Virus record (IMG/VR): IMGVR_UViG_3300021400_001324
Span: 1 to 64,000 of that record
DNA from: a virus
Taxonomy: Duplodnaviria; Caudoviricetes
Reading direction: 5' to 3' (one strand)
Length of the DNA stretch: 64,000 nt
In this document: piece after piece, positions 9,254 to 57,642 of the stretch
How positions within the stretch are numbered: the first letter of the stretch is position 1
How the letters are laid out: each line of letters opens with the position of its first letter
Notes under the pieces: generated by a model
What the model was told of the DNA's origin: nothing
Seen by the model: only the letters and a program-made list of their open reading frames with translations
Database searches by the model: none
Position numbers and translations under genes: made by a program

Positions 9254-10725
9254 TACGTTGTCTATATCTTTATTACACAAGCTTTATAGTATTTATGATT
9301 TCCATCATCATCTGTTCCTGTTTGATATGTGCCAGGAGGATAAAATTCGCATTTAAAACTAGATAGGATTTCATTATTATCATCATCTGTTCCTGTTTGA
9401 TCTGTGTTAGAATCTCTATTCGAAAAAATACTCAAAGAAGTATAATTATTTTCCGTCCAATAGGCCCTAAACGTTCCTGTATAAATATCTCCATGTTGTG
9501 TAAGATTGACAGTTACCTAATTTGTTTCAACTTGTGGAAAACCATTACTTAATATGTTAGGCTAACCGTCTATCATTATAATTCTTCCAAGGGTAGAGCC
9601 TGTTAATCGAAAACTAACTGAACTTAAATTTGTAAATTGATCATAATAACTATATTCTAAAGATTCCTTAAGTATTGACGGATCATCTTCATCTTGATTA
9701 TAAACTCTAATTATATACTCGCCTGACTATTTTGAAAATAAAGGTTTATTTACGATATATTTTGCATAAAAATGTGGATTATTGTCAGAATCTAATCTAA
9801 CTGTAATGTTGAAAAATTTATCTAGATGAAAATCATAATAAACTCCAGATTTAATATCGCCTATATTAATTCTTGGAATCTGTGCATTTGATGTTTCATT
9901 GTATAAAGGAACTATCTGCACAGGGTATTCTTTTCTTTCCGATATCCAGTATATCATTTCATTTACTATTTTGACTTCATCACTACTACCATCTCCACTC
10001 TTATTAAAGAAATCCTTATAACGAGTTTCTATTAGATTTTTATACTCTAAACTAGAATTATATAATACATATAAGCAACTTCTATCATCTACATCCCATA
10101 TACCATTATCGTTTAAATCTAATGGTTGAAATTTAAACTTTATATAAGGATTTGTTCTAACCGCTTTATCAGAAATATTAAAATCAGATGTAGCAAATAT
10201 TACAGTATCACTAGGCTTATTTTTTATATAATCTACTTTAGTATTATCATCCTATGCCCAATTTGACTATATCTAACCTAGAGATGATCCACCACTAATA
10301 GTTCCTAAATTAACTACTCCGTTTTCATCAGGAGTATATGATTTCCCATTAACTACAATTTCTTTTACGTAGTTTTTTAATGTATTGTTAAATTCTTCTC
10401 TAGTAATGAGATTTCCCGTTAGCTAATCTAATAAGTCATTTAAGTGATCTTTCCAATCTCCAAATAAAGTTTCAAATAGCTCACGAATGCCCTCATAATC
10501 TTGTTCATCTAGTCTGTCATTTATTCTCTAGAGAGCTGCTTGTAATTTATCCAATTCTGATTTTACTGTTGTTTCTCCATTACAGTCCATTAATACTGCT
10601 GAAGCTTGAGTAATATAATACACTGTTTTATTTGTGCATTCATCAACTGGCTATTTATAAACAAAATCACAAGGATCTGGTTTACACTAAGTTGTTGTTG
10701 TTTCTTTACAATTACAATTTTTCAT
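9253..10725 (-). CDS. Tail-fibre-associated protein, about 490 aa, many TAG
   Basis: Cys-rich N-terminus; QSNWAQDDNTKVDYIKNKP motif typical of phage tail-fibre proteins; includes fragment 9727..9957 in frame. Confidence 0.6.
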
Positions 10726-14124: not shown

Positions 14125-14428
14125 CTTTGTTATAATCTAAGTTTTTAAAATACTTAATAACTGGCTTAAATACAGTGTCCCAACTTACTAAACTAGCAAT
14201 AAAACTATATAATATCACATTTGAGTACTATCCATTATAACATATTATTCCACCTAAAAGCAATCCGCATATCACAGCTATTATACGTTTTACTGCTGTT
14301 GAGACACCTTTATTTGGGCCGTTAAGCTAATCTATAGTTTTTATAACTAGGTATGTTAATATGTTAACAGTTAACATATAACCGAAGTCAAAACTACCAA
14401 GAAGTAAGTCAATTATTTTTTCCATCAT
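14111..14428 (-). CDS. Putative holin, 105 aa, two TAG
   Basis: MMEKIIDLLLGSFDFGYMLTVNILTYLVI...; 2-3 transmembrane segments, charged C-terminus. Confidence 0.6.
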
Positions 14429-16620
14429 GTAAATCTAACTGTATCGTTATAAGGATTACCGTCATAAAGCTGATTAAGTTCAATTTTAACTTTCTATTTA
14501 TCAATTTCAGTTTGTCCTTCTTTATATGTTCTATCAGTCTAAGCTTGATACCATCTAATTTCTTTATCAGTTTCAAGTTTAGCCTATTCTAGTTGTAACT
14601 TCTATTCGTTAAGTTGCTCTAGTTTTTGAGACATCTACTAGTTCTACTATTGAAGTTGCTACATCTATTGTTGAGCCTATTCAAGTTGTTGTTGAAGTTG
14701 ATTAATCTAGTCTATTTCAGCTTTCTTTTTAGCCCATCCTTTTTTCATCATTTGTTTTAATTCAGTCATACTACGACAAGAAATAGCTTCAGCAGCCATA
14801 TCTGGTTCTAGCATATTAGCCTATATCATCTGTATAACTGTCTATCTCAACTATTCTAAATCTTTAAGAATTTGAGTTGAAGATATAATATGTATATCGT
14901 AATCTGTAACTGTAAAATATTCTGGAAGAATTGTAAATACTTTCTATAAATGATCTCCAAGAATAATAGAACCAGTTAAGCCATTTTTCCACACAATTTT
15001 AGCCATATCAACACAATCAATCAGTATATCAGTAACTAAAGTATCCATTTGTTGATAAAACGGTTTTGTAATCGTAAATGAATTTTTAGCTCCGGCTTCT
15101 ATATTACTTACAGCATCACGCTACGTAATTCCATTTAATCTTTCTCTAAATACACCTGTAATTGATGTTACTTGATTTTCAATACGTTCAAGAACTATTT
15201 CAAATGCTTGAATGGCTTGAACTTTTGTAGCATCATCAAATCCAGACATAAATGTATTGTTATTAAATCCTCTACCTTCTTGTGAAGAATCAATGAGAGC
15301 TGTACCACCTTTTTTATATGCTAACCATTTCTAGATACGTTCTGTCATATCGGAACCTAAAAATGCAGGAAGCATTGAAACATCGAGCCAATCTCCAATT
15401 GTACCACTATTAGCAAGAAGATTATCACGTAAGAAAATAGTTACATCATAACGATCTTGTAAAGTTGTACATTGTAAAACGAGACTTGTTGGTAAATTAT
15501 CACGGTTCATCATAAATATACCACCTACTGATAACTTACAATGTCTTGGAGCATCTTGTGTTCTTACTACGTTTTGTGATAATCCAGTGGGAATATATAT
15601 AGAATTACCTATACGTACACCCTCATATCGATTCTGGATATATTTTCCGTCTTGTTTATCTACATCAATCCATTCGACTTCAAATACAGGAAGCAATTTG
15701 TACATATAAGTTTCGTATCCATCAATTGGAAACCCAGGTACTACTCGTTTACCATTATCTAAATCTCCTTCCATTGGAGCATGAAGTAATGAATTATTAT
15801 GGGTAGTAACGTACATAAAATTTCCATCTTCATAATGATTATGCATATCATTAAGTTCAGATATCGCATCACGAGTCATTCTATCACCATACTCTGCAAG
15901 AATTTGTTCTCTAGTCATCCATTTACGAATAACTACTCGATAACTATCTTTAACGTATGGAGAATCTGGGTTTCTGTCTACAAATGTATTTAAGGGATTA
16001 AGACATTCAATAACTAAATTAGTACCTTCTGGTGAAGGTTTTGTACGATAAAAAGCACATCCAGCTATTAACAAGTCTTGGAGTAATATTCTTTTCTTAT
16101 TTGCAAGATCGGTTACTCTAGATTGAGATACATAATCTATAACATTTTGTGCTGCTATTTCATACTCACTTATAAAATTGTTATCAATGTCTTCGATAAG
16201 TTTATTTATTTGCTAATCAATAGCTGGATCTTTTAAATCTTTTCCATTTACAAAATCAAGAATTTGTTTATTTAAATCCTATTTATATAAATTAAAAAGT
16301 TGTCGTTTTATCTCAAGTAGTTTATCTCTATTTATGTTAGTTAGAGTCTATTCATCTTTACAAGAAACTTTAGCAATTGTAGGTACGTCCAAATATTCAC
16401 CAAGTAACGCATCTACATGTTTTTTAATCAGTGGTGTAAATTCAACTTGAGTTGGATTACCTATACCAAAGTTTTCTTCAAGATACCTAAACTATTCAGA
16501 ATCTCGCCTACCATTATAGTAATTGTAAGCTTTCTATAACTTAAATTTATGATGGACGAGTTCATTAATAGCTTTGTCTACTTGTTCTATTACATATTCT
16601 TTACCCCTCGCAGCAGCCAC
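14425..16620 (-). CDS. Portal protein, about 731 aa, GTG start, many TAG
   Basis: KAYNYYNGRRDSE(TAG)FRYLEENFGIGNPTQVEFTPLIKKHVDALLGE; follows terminase; includes fragment 15331..16074. Confidence 0.9.
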
Positions 16621-16879
16621 GTGTAAAATATAATTTTTTTAATTCTGAAAATTCTATACTGTCCCAATGAATCTTTCGTAGTTCTTTACATATAAAATTA
16701 AGAAACTATTCTGCATTTCCATCAAATGCACATTCATAAGGAATATCATTATGTCCAAAGCCTAACTATAATTTATAACCAGATTTAAGTTTAATTACTT
16801 TGATCATTCCAGTATATTCTTTTTCATAAACGTTTTTAATAATATCCAAGACTGCTGATTCTAAGTCTTTCGTATCCAT
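16601..16879 (-). CDS. Small conserved protein between terminase and portal, 92 aa, two TAG
   Basis: MDTKDLESAVLDIIKNVYEKEYTG...; overlaps both neighbours in the usual tight operon style. Confidence 0.6.
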
Positions 16880-19118
16880 AATATGAATCAACATCTATTA
16901 TATTTGTGTCTATTGTAGCATTAACTTCAGTTGTGGGAGCTTTAGGAATTCTACCTTTATGAATAATTCCACGTTCATCTTTCCAATAACCAAAGTCCTC
17001 AAATTTATCTTGTTGTGAATCTATTTTTGGCTAAACAAACATTAATTCTTCATTAGCAAGAAATGCCATTTGCATAGCAGCTACAATATCGAATTTTCTT
17101 TTATTTTCATAAGAATATCTTGATAACTCATCAAGGATTTCTTTAAACCAAATTTCACCACAATATTCGTCAATATAATCAGAGATCATATCGAGTCCGT
17201 GTGTAATTGTAGTTTCATTAGCTGGAGCACCAAACTATCTACTTTTACCATTCTGTATATCAGATTGACAGGCTCTAGGTCTTCGCATTAAATAACGGTT
17301 TTCGCATTTTTTACTTCTAAAGAATTGAAGTAGAGATACACGAGTAGATTCAAGACAGGCTTTTGCATTATACCATTGTAATAATCTCAAACACATTATG
17401 TGTGCATCTCTAACTTTTTGTGGTCTATCTTTATAATAAGCTACAATTTGAGGAGGATGCATACCGTAAGCACGTCTAAGTATTACTACGCAGAAATCAG
17501 ATGGGTCTTTATAACTAGCAGATGTATCTTCCTAACCTAAGTCGATACCGTCAATTCCACCAACATATAGATTAACTGGAACTTGTTTATCGTCATCTAT
17601 TTTAGGGGCTTCTAATACATGAACTTTTCCACCTTGTTGTGGTACAAATTTTATACCTTCAATCATTTCATCAGTAACAATATTATCTTTAAATATGTAT
17701 TCTAAAGTTCCATGCTAAATTGTAGGTACATCTTTACCATTCATAAGTATCCTAGCCATCTATTCTGCAATAAGTGCCTAGTCGAATTGGTTTTCACCTT
17801 CAAGAGCAAACGCTTCTTCTGCTGTAAAACAGTGCTCAGCACATTCGCGTTTATACTCTTTTGGCATACTTAATAGATTATTTCGAGTTAAATTTCTAAA
17901 CTTTTTAACTTCCTATCTATCAACTACACCTCTATCATCAATAAATCGTATATATTTACCTTCTTCTGGTTCATATCCGTCTTTCAAAATAAAGTCAGCT
18001 GCGGATACAAAAAATCCTGATAATTTGTATTCACCACTATCAAAATTATTATGTCTATATGGAAGGACATTGAATGCAACGGGATTATAAAACATATCTC
18101 TTAACTAATCCACTGATTTCATATCACCGCCTGTTCCAAAACACAATCTTGTACCTATTTTATTACCGCCGACTTCTACAAGAGCGTTACCTTTAATGTA
18201 AGTTTCTTTTAAAATAGGATTAGAACCAGCTTCTTCAAATATTAACAAATCTATACGATCACCACGAAGCTTACTAGACTAGTCTATGACCAATCCTTCT
18301 ATATCAGAATTCCAAGAGTTTGGTAACTCTTCACGTTGTTTATTTATTTTCGATGCTTTTTTGTGAAAGGCCGTATTCATTTTCTAACGAACATGTCTCA
18401 TACCGCCTTCTGTATCAGCATTTAAATAGTCTAACTATAACCAAGCTTTCTTTAATGAGTCAGATACGAATTTTTCTGTTGCTGCAATTACTACATTGTG
18501 AGTATTACGTCTAGTTGAATAATTATTAACTAACAAGCTAGCTCCAATTTCCGAGAATCCTACGGCACGACTTTTAACGGCCAATACATCTCGTTTTAGT
18601 ATTTGAGCCATCTCTATATAATGAAAATATTCGTACTGCTTATCAACAAAAGCTGGAAATATTAAACCTCTACCCTACCCTGCTTTTTTAACATCAGTAT
18701 CGGGTAGTCTATAATAATTTAAAAAGAAATAGTGATCTCCAGTAATTCTATAACCATTAACGCTCATACCATTATTACATCGATCATATTCCTTTTTCCA
18801 AAAATCCATATAAGCTTTAGTACCTTGTGGGTATGAACAGTATTTACCTGTTTGTAATTTAACCTCTCTAGCTTCTGTAAACCACTCTGGTTTAAAATCT
18901 AAACCTTTAGTTTTAGTTAATGGTCTATAGCCAGTCAATTCATAAGACAAGTCAGAATCAAAATAATCAATTTTATCATTTAATTTAACATCCCAAGTTA
19001 CTACATCTTTATTAAATAAAGATTCTCTTAAAGCTTGTATATTATTATCAAGTGCTTGCTACTAGAGTTTATCCTAATTTATTTTTAAAGTAGGATTCTA
19101 TTTCTTTTTACGAGGCAT
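16836..19118 (-). CDS. terL: Terminase large subunit, 760 aa, many TAG
   Basis: ITGDHYFFLNYY, KSRAVGFSE (Walker A-like), LLIFEEAG (Walker B), FGTGGD, GGIDGIDLG nuclease motif; fragments joined only by TAG (e.g. 18675-18677). Confidence 0.93.
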
Positions 19119-49432: not shown

Positions 49433-49506
49433 GGTCTTGTGGCGCAATTGGTCAGCGCGTCTGTCTTATACACAGTAGGTTGTAGGTTCAAGTCCTACCA
49501 AGACCA
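49433..49506 (+). tRNA. tRNA-Ile(UAU)
   Basis: GGTCTTG...CT-TAT-AC...GTAGG TTCAAGT CCTAC CAAGACC A cloverleaf. Confidence 0.85.
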
Positions 49507-49535
49507 CTTTTTATCAACCTTTAAACTTCAAAATT

Positions 49536-52221: not shown

Positions 52222-52470
52222 ATGACAAAAAAGAAATGGCGTAAAAAAGAATTCAAGAGATTGGTATCTCTTGGATGGCCACGATATGTAGCTTCAAGAA
52301 TAGTTAGAGGTAAAACTTTAGCTTCCCTAGGTTACAAAAACTTGGATGATCTTACATTAGATCGTCAAACGTACTACAATAGTGAATTTAACACTATTGT
52401 CTATATTTTTCAAGATGAAACTTGGAAACAAGTAGAGGCTACAAAACCTTTACATTATTATTACGATTAA
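52222..52470 (+). CDS. Hypothetical basic protein
   Basis: Intact 82 aa. Confidence 0.5.
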   Translation: MTKKKWRKKEFKRLVSLGWPRYVASRIVRGKTLASLGYKNLDDLTLDRQTYYNSEFNTIVYIFQDETWKQVEATKPLHYYYD

Positions 52471-52487
52471 CTTTTAAATTAAACAAT

Positions 52488-52931
52488 ATGACACCGAACA
52501 TTAAGAAAACTGAAGCAGGAGTATCTGTACAAATTGTGCTCCCGTTCCGTGAGGGGAATAGTGTTCCCAAGCTGAGAGAGGCACCAAAATATCAGTGCCT
52601 CAAAGACAATAAGGAAGCACTGATCAGAGCTGTTAAGGCACGCATGCAAGCATGTTACGATAGCCTTGTAGAAGGAATGGATAACATCGTTTATAATGAT
52701 GGTATGTCTATTCACTACAAAGTTGATGGAAGTTATTCTTACTTTAATCTTCCAAGCTGGGAGGTTATGGAGAAGCTTCTCAAAGCACTTGAGGAAGATG
52801 CTTACTATAACTGGGACATTCCAATGTATGAGCAACTTCTCAAATCAGTTGTTCTGCATTTTGATGCTACTTACAAGAACTATGATAAGATGGTTTGTTA
52901 TTTAATTAACCATCTTGCGGTTCAAGGTTGA
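52488..52931 (+). CDS. Hypothetical protein (start moved to 52488)
   Basis: MTPNIKKTEAGVSV... after an AT-rich leader. Confidence 0.65.
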   Translation: MTPNIKKTEAGVSVQIVLPFREGNSVPKLREAPKYQCLKDNKEALIRAVKARMQACYDSLVEGMDNIVYNDGMSIHYKVDGSYSYFNLPSWEVMEKLLKALEEDAYYNWDIPMYEQLLKSVVLHFDATYKNYDKMVCYLINHLAVQG

Positions 52932-52956
52932 AATCCCTGGCTCGTTAAGAGCCAAA

Positions 52957-53014
52957 ATCTCTGACAAGTCTAGACCTTCACGTGGGTCAGAGGTCGCATT
53001 AGCGCATACTAGAC
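52957..53014 (+). ncRNA. Minimal HDV/CPEB3-like self-cleaving ribozyme fold
   Basis: P1 CTCTGAC/GTCAGAG, P2 GTCTAG/CTAGAC, L3 TTCACGT, P4 CGC-ATTA-GCG, putative catalytic C at 53005. Confidence 0.65.
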
Positions 53015-53254
53015 ATTGCTCTTTTATCTTTTCTATGCTGCGAAGAATAGTAACAGCCGCTTAAGTAAAAGGTTGAATTGCCAGATATAAATAACTGGAA
53101 CCCATAAATAGAGAGATTCGTTCAACTTCAGAATTGAATGTTATGCCTATAGCGAATTAGAATTTTTCATTTTGAAATAATTTTAGATTAATCATTGAAA
53201 GAATCTCTCTATTTTTCTTACCTTAAATAAATCCTGGGTAAGCAGGTAAATACT

Positions 53255-53524
53255 ATGCGTAAGTATAGCCGTATTAACAAAAATCGCAAGTCGGGTATTA
53301 ACCGCTCCAACCTCCGTATGAAAAAGGAACGCAAAGTTCGTGCTTTTTCATTTGCGGGTGTCAAATTAGACATCCGACTGAACAACCGTGGTGGCATCGT
53401 AGATGTTCAGCCACGTGTTGGCGATCTTTTCAATAAGATCGCAGGTCGTCAATGGGGGTTGTCAGATGTTAAGAACATCCTTCGTGATGAGTGTATCGAA
53501 TTTGCTAACTCAAATAAAGAGTAA
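53255..53524 (+). CDS. Basic hypothetical protein
   Basis: Intact 89 aa. Confidence 0.65.
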   Translation: MRKYSRINKNRKSGINRSNLRMKKERKVRAFSFAGVKLDIRLNNRGGIVDVQPRVGDLFNKIAGRQWGLSDVKNILRDECIEFANSNKE

Positions 53525-53529
53525 CAACT

Positions 53530-53892
53530 ATGGCACGAGTTGATTACAGCAAGTTTGATTACAAACAGGCCTGTGCTAAATTCAATATGGTGCGTATGCA
53601 CTATATTGGAAAGGCAGTACAGAAGGCAGAAATCAAACAAGCCATTCTTACTTCAGGTTTAGGATGGCATTCTATCCTATTAACGATCTTAATTAATCAC
53701 AAATGTGTGATTAAAGAAGGTCGTGGTCGTGCTTGTAAGTTGTTCTTCACAAAAGAACCACTCCACTTTACACAGCTCTACGATGCTCACAAAGAGTATC
53801 TGAGAGTTAGAAGAGAAATGAAGAAAGAAGCTAAACCTGTTCAAAAGGAAACTAAGAAGATTTCCTATTGGACATCAACCACGACTTGGTGA
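53530..53892 (+). CDS. Hypothetical protein
   Basis: Intact 120 aa. Confidence 0.65.
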   Translation: MARVDYSKFDYKQACAKFNMVRMHYIGKAVQKAEIKQAILTSGLGWHSILLTILINHKCVIKEGRGRACKLFFTKEPLHFTQLYDAHKEYLRVRREMKKEAKPVQKETKKISYWTSTTTW

Positions 53893-55416: not shown

Positions 55417-55487
55417 TGAGATTTGGTGTAATGGCAGCACACAACATTTTGGATGTTGTAGTATAGGTTCGAATCCTGTAATCTCAA
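55417..55487 (+). tRNA. tRNA-Gln(UUG)
   Basis: TGAGATT...CAACA TT-TTG-GA TGTTG...ATAGG TTCGAAT CCTGT AATCTCA A. Confidence 0.9.
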
Positions 55488-55567
55488 CTCGTTTGTCATG
55501 ATGTTTAAAGGTTAACGGCAGCTGTGCCTGCTGAACTCTGGGAAGATAGTAAGCTAAAACAGCACTC

Positions 55568-57571: not shown

Positions 57572-57642
57572 GGCCCTGTAGTTTAGAAGCAGAACGCAAG
57601 ATTTTCATTCTTGAGAACACGGAGCGTTACCGTGCTGGGCTA
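57572..57642 (+). tRNA. tRNA-Glu(UUC), atypical T-loop AGCGTTA
   Basis: CAAGA TT-TTC-AT TCTTG; CACGG/CCGTG T-stem. Confidence 0.75.

Follow-up and report, generated by a model that had tools for sequence, protein, structure and literature searches.

The window, by which we mean the whole stretch of 64,000 nucleotides of DNA analysed here, belongs to a 77.8-kb phage fragment that is estimated to be 44% complete. Its portal and large terminase genes (14425-19118, minus strand) are open only if TAG is read as a sense codon, with 23 and 16 in-frame TAGs, respectively. ARAGORN finds no tRNA with a CUA anticodon in the window and finds one in L036, L077, L265 and L014 (L numbers designate the sequences compared with the window). 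The locus considered here lies on the plus strand in surroundings of small genes and tRNAs. An open reading frame at 52488-52931 is overlapped at its end by a small hairpin, H1 (52925-52938), which is directly abutted by a second hairpin, H2 (52939-52953), and followed by the single-stranded leader AAAAU (52954-52958). Then come the 56 nt of a putative ribozyme (52959-53014), a conserved and structured 240-nt leader (53015-53254) and the gene for P0001, an 89-aa basic protein with a very basic N-terminus (53255-53524), all of them on the plus strand. Searches of Pfam and PHROG with eight neighbouring small proteins, P0001 included, returned no family. The nearest tRNAs lie 3.4 kb upstream (49433-49507) and 2.4 kb downstream (55417-55488), and ARAGORN calls none over the hairpins in the window or in 15 related loci. 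H1 is therefore not taken to be part of a tRNA, and the element does not stand beside one, as the original prediction had it. A further segment of the window, 57572-57642, scores 45.8 bits against the Rfam tRNA model and receives no ARAGORN call.

Judged from its sequence, 52959-53014 is a nested double pseudoknot of the hepatitis delta virus (HDV) type. Each helix predicted earlier can be located, and the order P1, P2, P3, P3', P1', P1.1, P4 and P2' is that of HDV. P1 is formed by CUCUGAC (52959-52965), with C52959 as nucleotide +1, and GUCAGAG (52986-52992). The two adenosines of J1/2 (52966-52967; 0 to 5 nt in relatives) lead into the 5' strand of P2, GUCUAG (52968-52973), and its partner CUAGAC (53009-53014) closes the element. 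The 5' strand of P3, ACC (52974-52976), faces only GG (52984-52985), with C52975-G52985 and C52976-G52984 as its Watson-Crick pairs. A52974 is either unpaired or opposite G52986, itself the partner of C52965, and the invariant C52965 and G52986 can be read as the seventh pair of P1 or, together with A52974, as an A.G closing P3. The 3-bp P3 of HDV is thus reduced to two pairs in the window, whereas other family members have three; the third pair (A-U, G-C or G.U) is absent from the window's subgroup because its P3' strand is GG. The L3 loop UUCACGU (52977-52983) carries C52979, which pairs with G52993 of J1/4 (GU, 52993-52994) to form P1.1, leaving U52994 to face U52978. It also carries U52977 and G52982, the equivalents of the U20.G25 reverse wobble of HDV, which are invariant in 20 aligned sequences. 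P4 (52995-53004) consists of CGC/GCG (52995-52997 with 53002-53004) and the loop AUUA, and J4/2 (CAUA, 53005-53008) opens with C53005, the presumed general acid. The catalytic role that had been assigned to this cytidine remains plausible, as every intact relative likewise has a C in J4/2.

A blastn search with 52400-53300 against 50,697 phage records gave no match. In the sister contig L002, reached through the upstream protein (88% amino-acid identity), the 58 nt that include the element are identical except for a change of the pair U52960-A52991 to C-G. An exact scan with the P3-L3-P3' string gave, among the matches listed, L014, L036, L091 and L077, which have the core in common with the window and in which P1, P2 and P4 are wholly different yet complementary. 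In L077, for instance, P2 is GGCAAC/GUUGCC and P4 is CGAC-AUUC-GUCG. L321 and L324 carry a ribozyme of the window's type with wobble changes, and P4 of L324 differs from that of the window in the loop alone (AUUU). Members of this subgroup also include copies with a long P4 flanked by GAA...AGUA, a loop-E/bulged-G signature (L014:4336-4420, minus strand; L036:3007-3084; L091:1576-1653; L470; L502). A second, divergent copy in L014 (725-783, minus strand), with L3 UCUACGU, J1/4 GC and the leader GAAAU, lies about 118 nt downstream of a tRNA-Met.

Scans for the upstream module, and for leader and core with no pairing demanded, brought to light a second, larger subgroup. Its members have P3 ACC/GGU or GCC/GGC, L3 UU(G/A/U)ACGN, J1/4 CU, UU, CA or AU, an L4 of 5-7 nt and J4/2 CUAA, CUGA, CAGA or CCGA. 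In L318/L319/L320 and in L322/L323 this second type occupies exactly the same position ahead of the shared leader and gene, and the two subgroups can therefore be regarded as orthologous elements. Across both, all intact members have a C that precedes P2' by 4 to 6 nt (CAUA, CUAA, CUGA, CAGA, CCGA or CCAA). The copy at L275:2102-2160 (plus strand) has J4/2 AUGAG rather than CUAAG (compare L303) together with a weakened P2; it is probably a dead ribozyme and as such a useful natural control. L170:405-489 (minus strand) has a hairpin of about 27 nt with an 11-bp stem inserted into L3, between the P1.1 bases and CGU, an unusual place in an HDV-type core. L180 has a classical theta ribozyme on its minus strand (index 10909 of the reverse strand), with G1, P1.1 CC/GG and CUAA, in addition to C1-type copies in the same contig, so that both types coexist in one phage. 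As for copy number, there is one copy in the window's record, with no further copies found in its 77.8 kb, and two complete genomes (90-98 kb) have a single copy apiece; the L097 contig has three within 5 kb. A second GGTTGAAAT at 10124 of the window's own record proved unrelated and is not another copy.

Several controls bear on the specificity of these matches. A relaxed descriptor (7-bp P1, P2 of at least 6 bp, P3 CC/GG, L3 U...CG., one Watson-Crick P1.1 pair and a C opening J4/2) matched the window once, at 52959-53014, and matched nothing on either strand in 30 dinucleotide shuffles of the 64 kb. With a pattern free of pairing, AAAATC-N12-22-RCCTTNACGNGG, each match was tested for complementarity between the heptamer that follows AAAAU and the heptamer that follows P3'. 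Among the 105 unique IMG/VR matches listed, P1 was perfect over 7 bp in 21 and paired at six of seven positions in 4; with shifted partners, the corresponding figures were 0 and 3 of 420. The same pattern gave a perfect P1 in none of the first 120 matches from 185,579 cellular genomes. For metagenomes a shorter pattern fixed on the window's L3 was used (AAATC-N12-22-CCTTCACGTGG), and a perfect P1 was seen in 6 of the 120 matches listed; the metagenome matches include a new P1, CCUAUUC. Taken over the matches listed, the perfect-P1 rates of IMG/VR, metagenomes and cellular genomes indicate that the ribozyme family is specific to phages. A control after Kienbeck et al., in which the C opening J4/2 was set against A, G or U, did not discriminate when the length of J4/2 was left free.

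Helices that had played no part in the selection of a sequence are more informative still. In the 25 sequences chosen on P1 alone, P1.1 is a Watson-Crick pair without exception (G-C 13, C-G 8, A-U 3, U-A 1), and a 6-bp P2 abutting P3 occurs in 22 of 33 sequences as compared with a mean of 4.8 and a maximum of 12 for shuffled 6-mers. A MAFFT alignment of 20 members misaligned the 3' half, with the subgroup having P3' GG off by one column. For this reason two covariance models were used, and the helices that had not been fitted were read from each. The first alignment, A5, consists of 28 sequences aligned by a model fitted to P1 and P3. Here 98.3% of the pair cells are paired, versus 72.6% in shuffles and 37-51% with slid partners, and the covariation score of 0.708, versus 0.194, was reached by 0 of 500 shuffles. 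Both sides change at six of the seven pairs of P1, the first pair being C-G in 28/28; both C positions of P3 are C-G pairs, again in 28/28. P1.1, a pair that the model of A5 did not fit, is complementary in every row that has letters there (GC in 16, CG in 7, AU in 2 and UG in 1). The second alignment, A4, comprises 19 distinct rows under a model fitted to P2 and P3 and is by construction biased towards P2, for which both sides change at 7/7 pairs and 91% of the cells are paired. Lastly, the U, U, A, C and G of L3 are invariant among 20 sequences. Given that P1, P2 and P1.1 all covary, we regard the fold predicted from these alignments as certain.

The position of the cut was less clear from the window by itself. 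P1 could be extended to 9 bp by A52957-U52994 and U52958.G52993, and the original prediction had accordingly offered two registers, with +1 at 52957 or at 52959, and called the cleavage site uncertain. Both registers can indeed be drawn in the window. Comparison with relatives, however, supports a 7-bp P1 and rules out +1 at 52957, which removes the uncertainty. The two extra pairs are missing in most relatives. In the second subgroup J1/4 is CU, UU, CA or AU, and hence a U at -1 would be unable to pair there. Moreover, position 3 of L3 always pairs with the first base after the 7-bp P1, which fixes J1/4 and with it +1 as C52959. The scissile bond is thus predicted to lie between U52958 and C52959, immediately after the AAAAU leader, with C53005 as the catalytic C. 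The leader before the cut site is AAAAU in 23/30 members and GAAAU in 2/30, with AAAAC and AAUAA as further variants. It may be added that the HDV ribozyme cleaves fastest with U at -1 (PMC1874588). In the window's subgroup, the 9-bp form of P1 may be an inhibitory alternative, which would compete with P1.1 and pair the -1 base.

How does the element relate to the ribozymes already described? None of the HDV-type families in Rfam (HDV_ribozyme, CPEB3, HDV-F-prausnitzii and drz) was found, either in the whole window at gathering thresholds or in 52850-53100 and L309 at E values up to 10. Among the closest known kinds are the theta ribozymes, with which it has in common the order of elements, approximately the size, a P3 of ACC or GCC, an L3 of U-NN-NCGY, a minimal P4 with a short L4, and a J4/2 opening with C. 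Theta ribozymes, which are minimal HDV-like ribozymes from Caudoviricetes of the gut, occur in large phages that use TAG as a sense codon, and the window fits the typical theta host, a Caudoviricetes phage, often TAG-recoded. There are differences as well. The theta sequences in the part of the published tables consulted have a G at +1, a C-G inner pair of P1.1 and NC/GN in P1.1 (Kienbeck et al., 2024; PMC10879173), whereas the window has C1-G rather than G1.U and a P1.1 of UC/GU, that is, one pair and a U.U. The window's subgroup has retained a C-G pair in P1.1 and is further set apart by P3' GG and J4/2 CAUA, and the C1 family has no tRNA but a conserved two-hairpin module upstream. Its core strings were not found in those of the published theta supplementary tables that were searched (PMC10879173). 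The earlier description as a minimal HDV-like ribozyme is apt as regards the double pseudoknot; the element does not fit the published theta descriptor, given the C at +1, the one-pair P1.1 and the GG of P3', and is to be regarded as a variant of the standard theta form. As to the genomic setting, theta ribozymes of the tRNA class cut within 5 nt of a tRNA 3' end; the window falls outside this class and in the "isolated" one, which is counted as theta (PMC10879173). The lack of a neighbouring tRNA, which had been presented as unusual, is in fact common: 526 theta occurrences, or 42% of the total, are non-tRNA, mostly in non-coding DNA and in sense orientation to the nearest gene (Kienbeck et al., 2024; PMC10879173).

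The most conspicuous departure from the HDV ribozyme is at the cut site itself. G1 has been reviewed as invariant and the G.U wobble as essential (PMC8495972); in place of G1.U (or G1-C), the window has C52959-G52992, and the pair is C-G in 28/28 sequences. A HDV-like ribozyme from C. briggsae with U-1/C1 nevertheless cleaves at 9.3 per min (Luo et al., 2026; PMC13635239), and G1 is consequently no longer strictly defining. In the same study a phage ribozyme assigned to 'Ackermannviridae' (BK037802.1), with a P1.1 of U:A and U:U, cleaves at about 4 per min and is dead as a C58U mutant; both crystallised ribozymes are inactivated when the catalytic C is changed to U (PMC13635239). As far as the descriptions in that paper go, the window resembles the C. 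briggsae ribozyme in U-1/C1 and both ribozymes in having a P1.1 of one Watson-Crick pair with a U:U or C:U. The candidate HDV variants reported there include an E-loop motif in P4 (PMC13635239), to which the GAA...AGUA in P4 of L014, L036 and L091 may be compared. By analogy with these cases, C1 and a weak P1.1 both have active precedents. No active precedent for a two-pair P3 or a CAUA J4/2 was found in the literature searched. The paper describes neither a genomic context nor an upstream module.

Two further comparisons are of interest. In the parts of the CPEB3 literature consulted, L3 has U20, C22, A23 and G25, P1.1 consists of one G-C and one U-U, and J4/2 is 4 nt long (PMC4836649). The window's L3 UUCACGU and J1/4 GU make up the same inner core, in agreement with the identity of the two L3 loops recognised by the original prediction. 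The resemblance is confined to the core, as CPEB3 has G1.U, a 3-bp P3 and a longer P4 and resides in a mammalian intron. The second comparison is with non-LTR retrotransposons (R2 and others), which have an HDV-like ribozyme at the 5' end of their RNA (PMC3774820). There, as is proposed for the window, the ribozyme heads a unit that is transcribed together with unrelated sequence upstream, releases the RNA behind it and stays on that RNA as the 5' end. The R2-type ribozymes belong to eukaryotic mobile elements and take part of P1 from host rRNA, whereas the window has a phage gene cassette, whose mosaic gene order is its only sign of mobility.

This gene order is what assigns the element to one of its two neighbours. 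When 52401-53560 is aligned by blastn with L321 and L324, the alignment starts at 52921-52925, that is, at the start of H1, and continues through the ribozyme and the leader into the gene. With L318 and L322, in which the ribozyme has another sequence, it starts immediately past the ribozyme, at 53016-53017. No similarity links the proteins encoded upstream in the window, L324, L321, L318 and L322. At the mosaic junction, 52921, the upstream gene encodes 147 aa in the window and 136, 97 and 93 aa (STIV_B116-like) in its sisters. H1, H2, AAAAU, the ribozyme, the 240-nt leader and the gene at 53255 thus behave as a single cassette that occurs downstream of varying genes. The original prediction had placed the ribozyme in the mRNA 3' region of the open reading frame at 52488-52931; since homology starts at 52921 and the upstream genes are unrelated, we assign it to the head of the downstream message instead. 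A promoter scan found no sigma-70-like promoter inside the cassette. TTGAAA in H1 and TAAAAT in the leader were considered as -35 and -10 boxes and rejected, as their spacing ranges from 18 to more than 40 bp, both stems covary and the promoter scan was negative.

The part of the cassette downstream of the ribozyme is conserved as well. The 240-nt leader is syntenic in L318, L321, L322 and L324 and, in an alignment of six sequences, nearly invariant apart from a hypervariable insert of about 75 nt. This insert is enclosed by a long-range stem of 18 bp (about 53106-24 with 53197-53215), which has three compensatory pairs in L318. Immediately behind the ribozyme, UUUAUCU (about 53023-29) is able to pair with AGGUAAA, 7 nt before the start codon, in what looks like a translational switch. 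Homologues of P0001 with 59-89% identity have the ribozyme upstream in all cases in which the contig reaches that far, and a homologue of 33% identity follows the third ribozyme copy in L097. It was through homologues of P0001 that L321, L324, L318/L319/L320 and L322/L323 were reached.

From these observations, it is quite likely that 52959-53014 is a self-cleaving ribozyme of the HDV fold, a minimal theta-like variant with C1-G, which frees the downstream message from an upstream co-transcript. When the polymerase reads through from the upstream gene, the RNA would fold into the double pseudoknot, and C53005 in J4/2 would act as the general acid for a cut between U52958 and C52959. The upstream mRNA would then end in a 2',3'-cyclic phosphate just after H1 and H2, and the downstream mRNA would begin with a 5'-OH that the compact ribozyme keeps buried, and would continue into the 240-nt structured leader and the 89-aa gene. 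In this manner the message of 53255 would be uncoupled, in both stability and translation, from its co-transcribed partner. The parts of this explanation differ in strength. In contrast to the fold, self-cleavage is judged probable by analogy with the known chemistry of the family. The uncoupling of transcripts is a plausible use, suggested by the gene context; it is favoured because the cassette is found behind different upstream genes.

What, then, is the purpose of the two hairpins? H1 has the stem AGG/CCU (52925-27 with 52936-38) and the conserved loop UUGAAAUC (52928-35), inside which falls the TGA stop (52929-31) of the upstream reading frame. In the form RGG-UUGAAAnY-CCY it is present in 24/30 family members; the stem varies (AGG/CCU, GGG/CCC, GAGG/CCUC, AUGG/CCAU) and the loop UUGAAAnY is kept. 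Two readings of this loop suggest themselves, one as a GAAA tetraloop above two pyrimidine mismatches and the other as a T-loop-like structure. H2 (GGCUC-GUUAA-GAGCC in the window) has 4 to 17 bp in relatives; its sequences are wholly different, the stem always being at the same place, 0-1 nt after H1, and in L321 and L324 it is maintained through a U.G wobble. The candidate roles are several: the hairpins may serve as a 3' cap for the released upstream RNA, as a folding insulator or tertiary helper, or as a protein site. We tentatively suggest, as a possibility rather than an expectation, that H1, H2, AAAAU and the C1-type ribozyme make up one portable "cut-and-cap" cassette, in which the ribozyme severs the RNA and H1/H2 are its functional partner. 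They would either help a core that has no G.U wobble to cut at cellular Mg2+ or provide the released upstream RNA with a 3' cap or protein handle. If this were true, the HDV family would gain a composite ribozyme element of a sort hitherto undescribed in it.

A narrower proposal, somewhat less probable than the cassette as a whole, adds to the main explanation rather than competing with it and makes H1 part of the working structure. On this view, either the GAAA-type loop of H1 docks on the ribozyme or the two hairpins keep upstream sequence away from it, so that a core weakened by C1-G and a one-pair P1.1 folds and cuts efficiently. Folding of the genomic HDV ribozyme is helped by upstream hairpins. 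The conservation of the H1 loop on stems that both vary agrees with such a function; so does the abutment of H1 on H2, which makes the distance of H1 from the cut site independent of the length of H2. Against it, no receptor motif was seen, nor any covariation of the H1 loop with the ribozyme, and H1 is broken in L322/L323 and missing in L288, L502 and the second L242 copy, all with an intact ribozyme. The existence of these members means that H1 is not indispensable.

Returning to the ribozyme proper, one might object that covariation is proof of structure and not of chemistry. The fold could be real and no longer catalytic, a structural element heading the leader as a block to 5' exonucleases, a protein site or a means of translational control of 53255. 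The long structured leader directly downstream would suit such a role, and the replacement of the supposedly invariant G1.U in 28/28 sequences, as well as the two-pair P3 and CAUA J4/2 of the window's subgroup, could be seen as signs of lost activity. We nonetheless consider this improbable. Bases needed for catalysis only are kept across very different sequences, namely the C of J4/2, the U...G of L3 and U-1, which lies outside the fold. In addition, the solved relatives show that fast cleavage is possible with C1 and with a one-pair P1.1 (PMC13635239), and the sole copy that has lost the C of J4/2, in L275, has also decayed in P2.

Slightly more doubtful again is the proposal that the useful product is the upstream RNA, with H1, H2 and AAAAU as the 3' part of a small RNA or of a tRNA relic that is trimmed by the ribozyme. 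H1 would then be a T-arm-like remnant, and its loop UUGAAAU does resemble a T loop (UUCRANY) on a GG/CC stem. The sequence conservation of H1 goes far beyond the need of a mere stabiliser, theta ribozymes cut at tRNA 3' ends (PMC10879173), and classical G1 theta ribozymes also occur in these phage lineages (L180). However, the ARAGORN results over H1 speak against a tRNA, there is no conservation 5' of H1, H1 in the window overlaps the end of a protein gene, and ribozymes remain intact where H1 is broken or absent (L322, L288, L502 and the second L242 copy). Finally, that the helices are a chance array of complementary segments in non-coding DNA can be dismissed as next to impossible: a pseudoknot-free minimum free energy fold is no better than shuffles (z = -0.40), which says nothing on this fold because pseudoknots are not modelled, whereas the shuffles gave no descriptor match and compensatory changes extend across more than 25 distinct sequences.

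The preferred reading, a self-cleaving ribozyme at the head of the downstream message, concerns a kind of ribozyme that is known already, as are its non-tRNA examples in phages. New are the subtype found in the window, a cassette boundary by which the ribozyme is allotted to the gene downstream, and H1-H2 as its conserved companion. The small HDV-like ribozymes of phages have had one proposed job, the trimming of tRNA 3' ends, and nearly half of the published examples, being non-tRNA, are left without an explanation. This locus provides a concrete and testable case among them, in which a predicted ribozyme marks the 5' boundary of a gene cassette that is joined by recombination to various upstream genes. 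It also reveals natural variation at positions long held to be fixed: C1-G, every Watson-Crick combination of P1.1, a two-pair P3 and, in one relative, a hairpin inserted into L3. Because such variation exists, descriptor searches that fix G1 and C-G would undercount the C1 family. The conserved pair of hairpins before the cut site, in turn, may offer a lead on what assists the folding of minimal ribozymes, or what protects the cut ends, inside cells.
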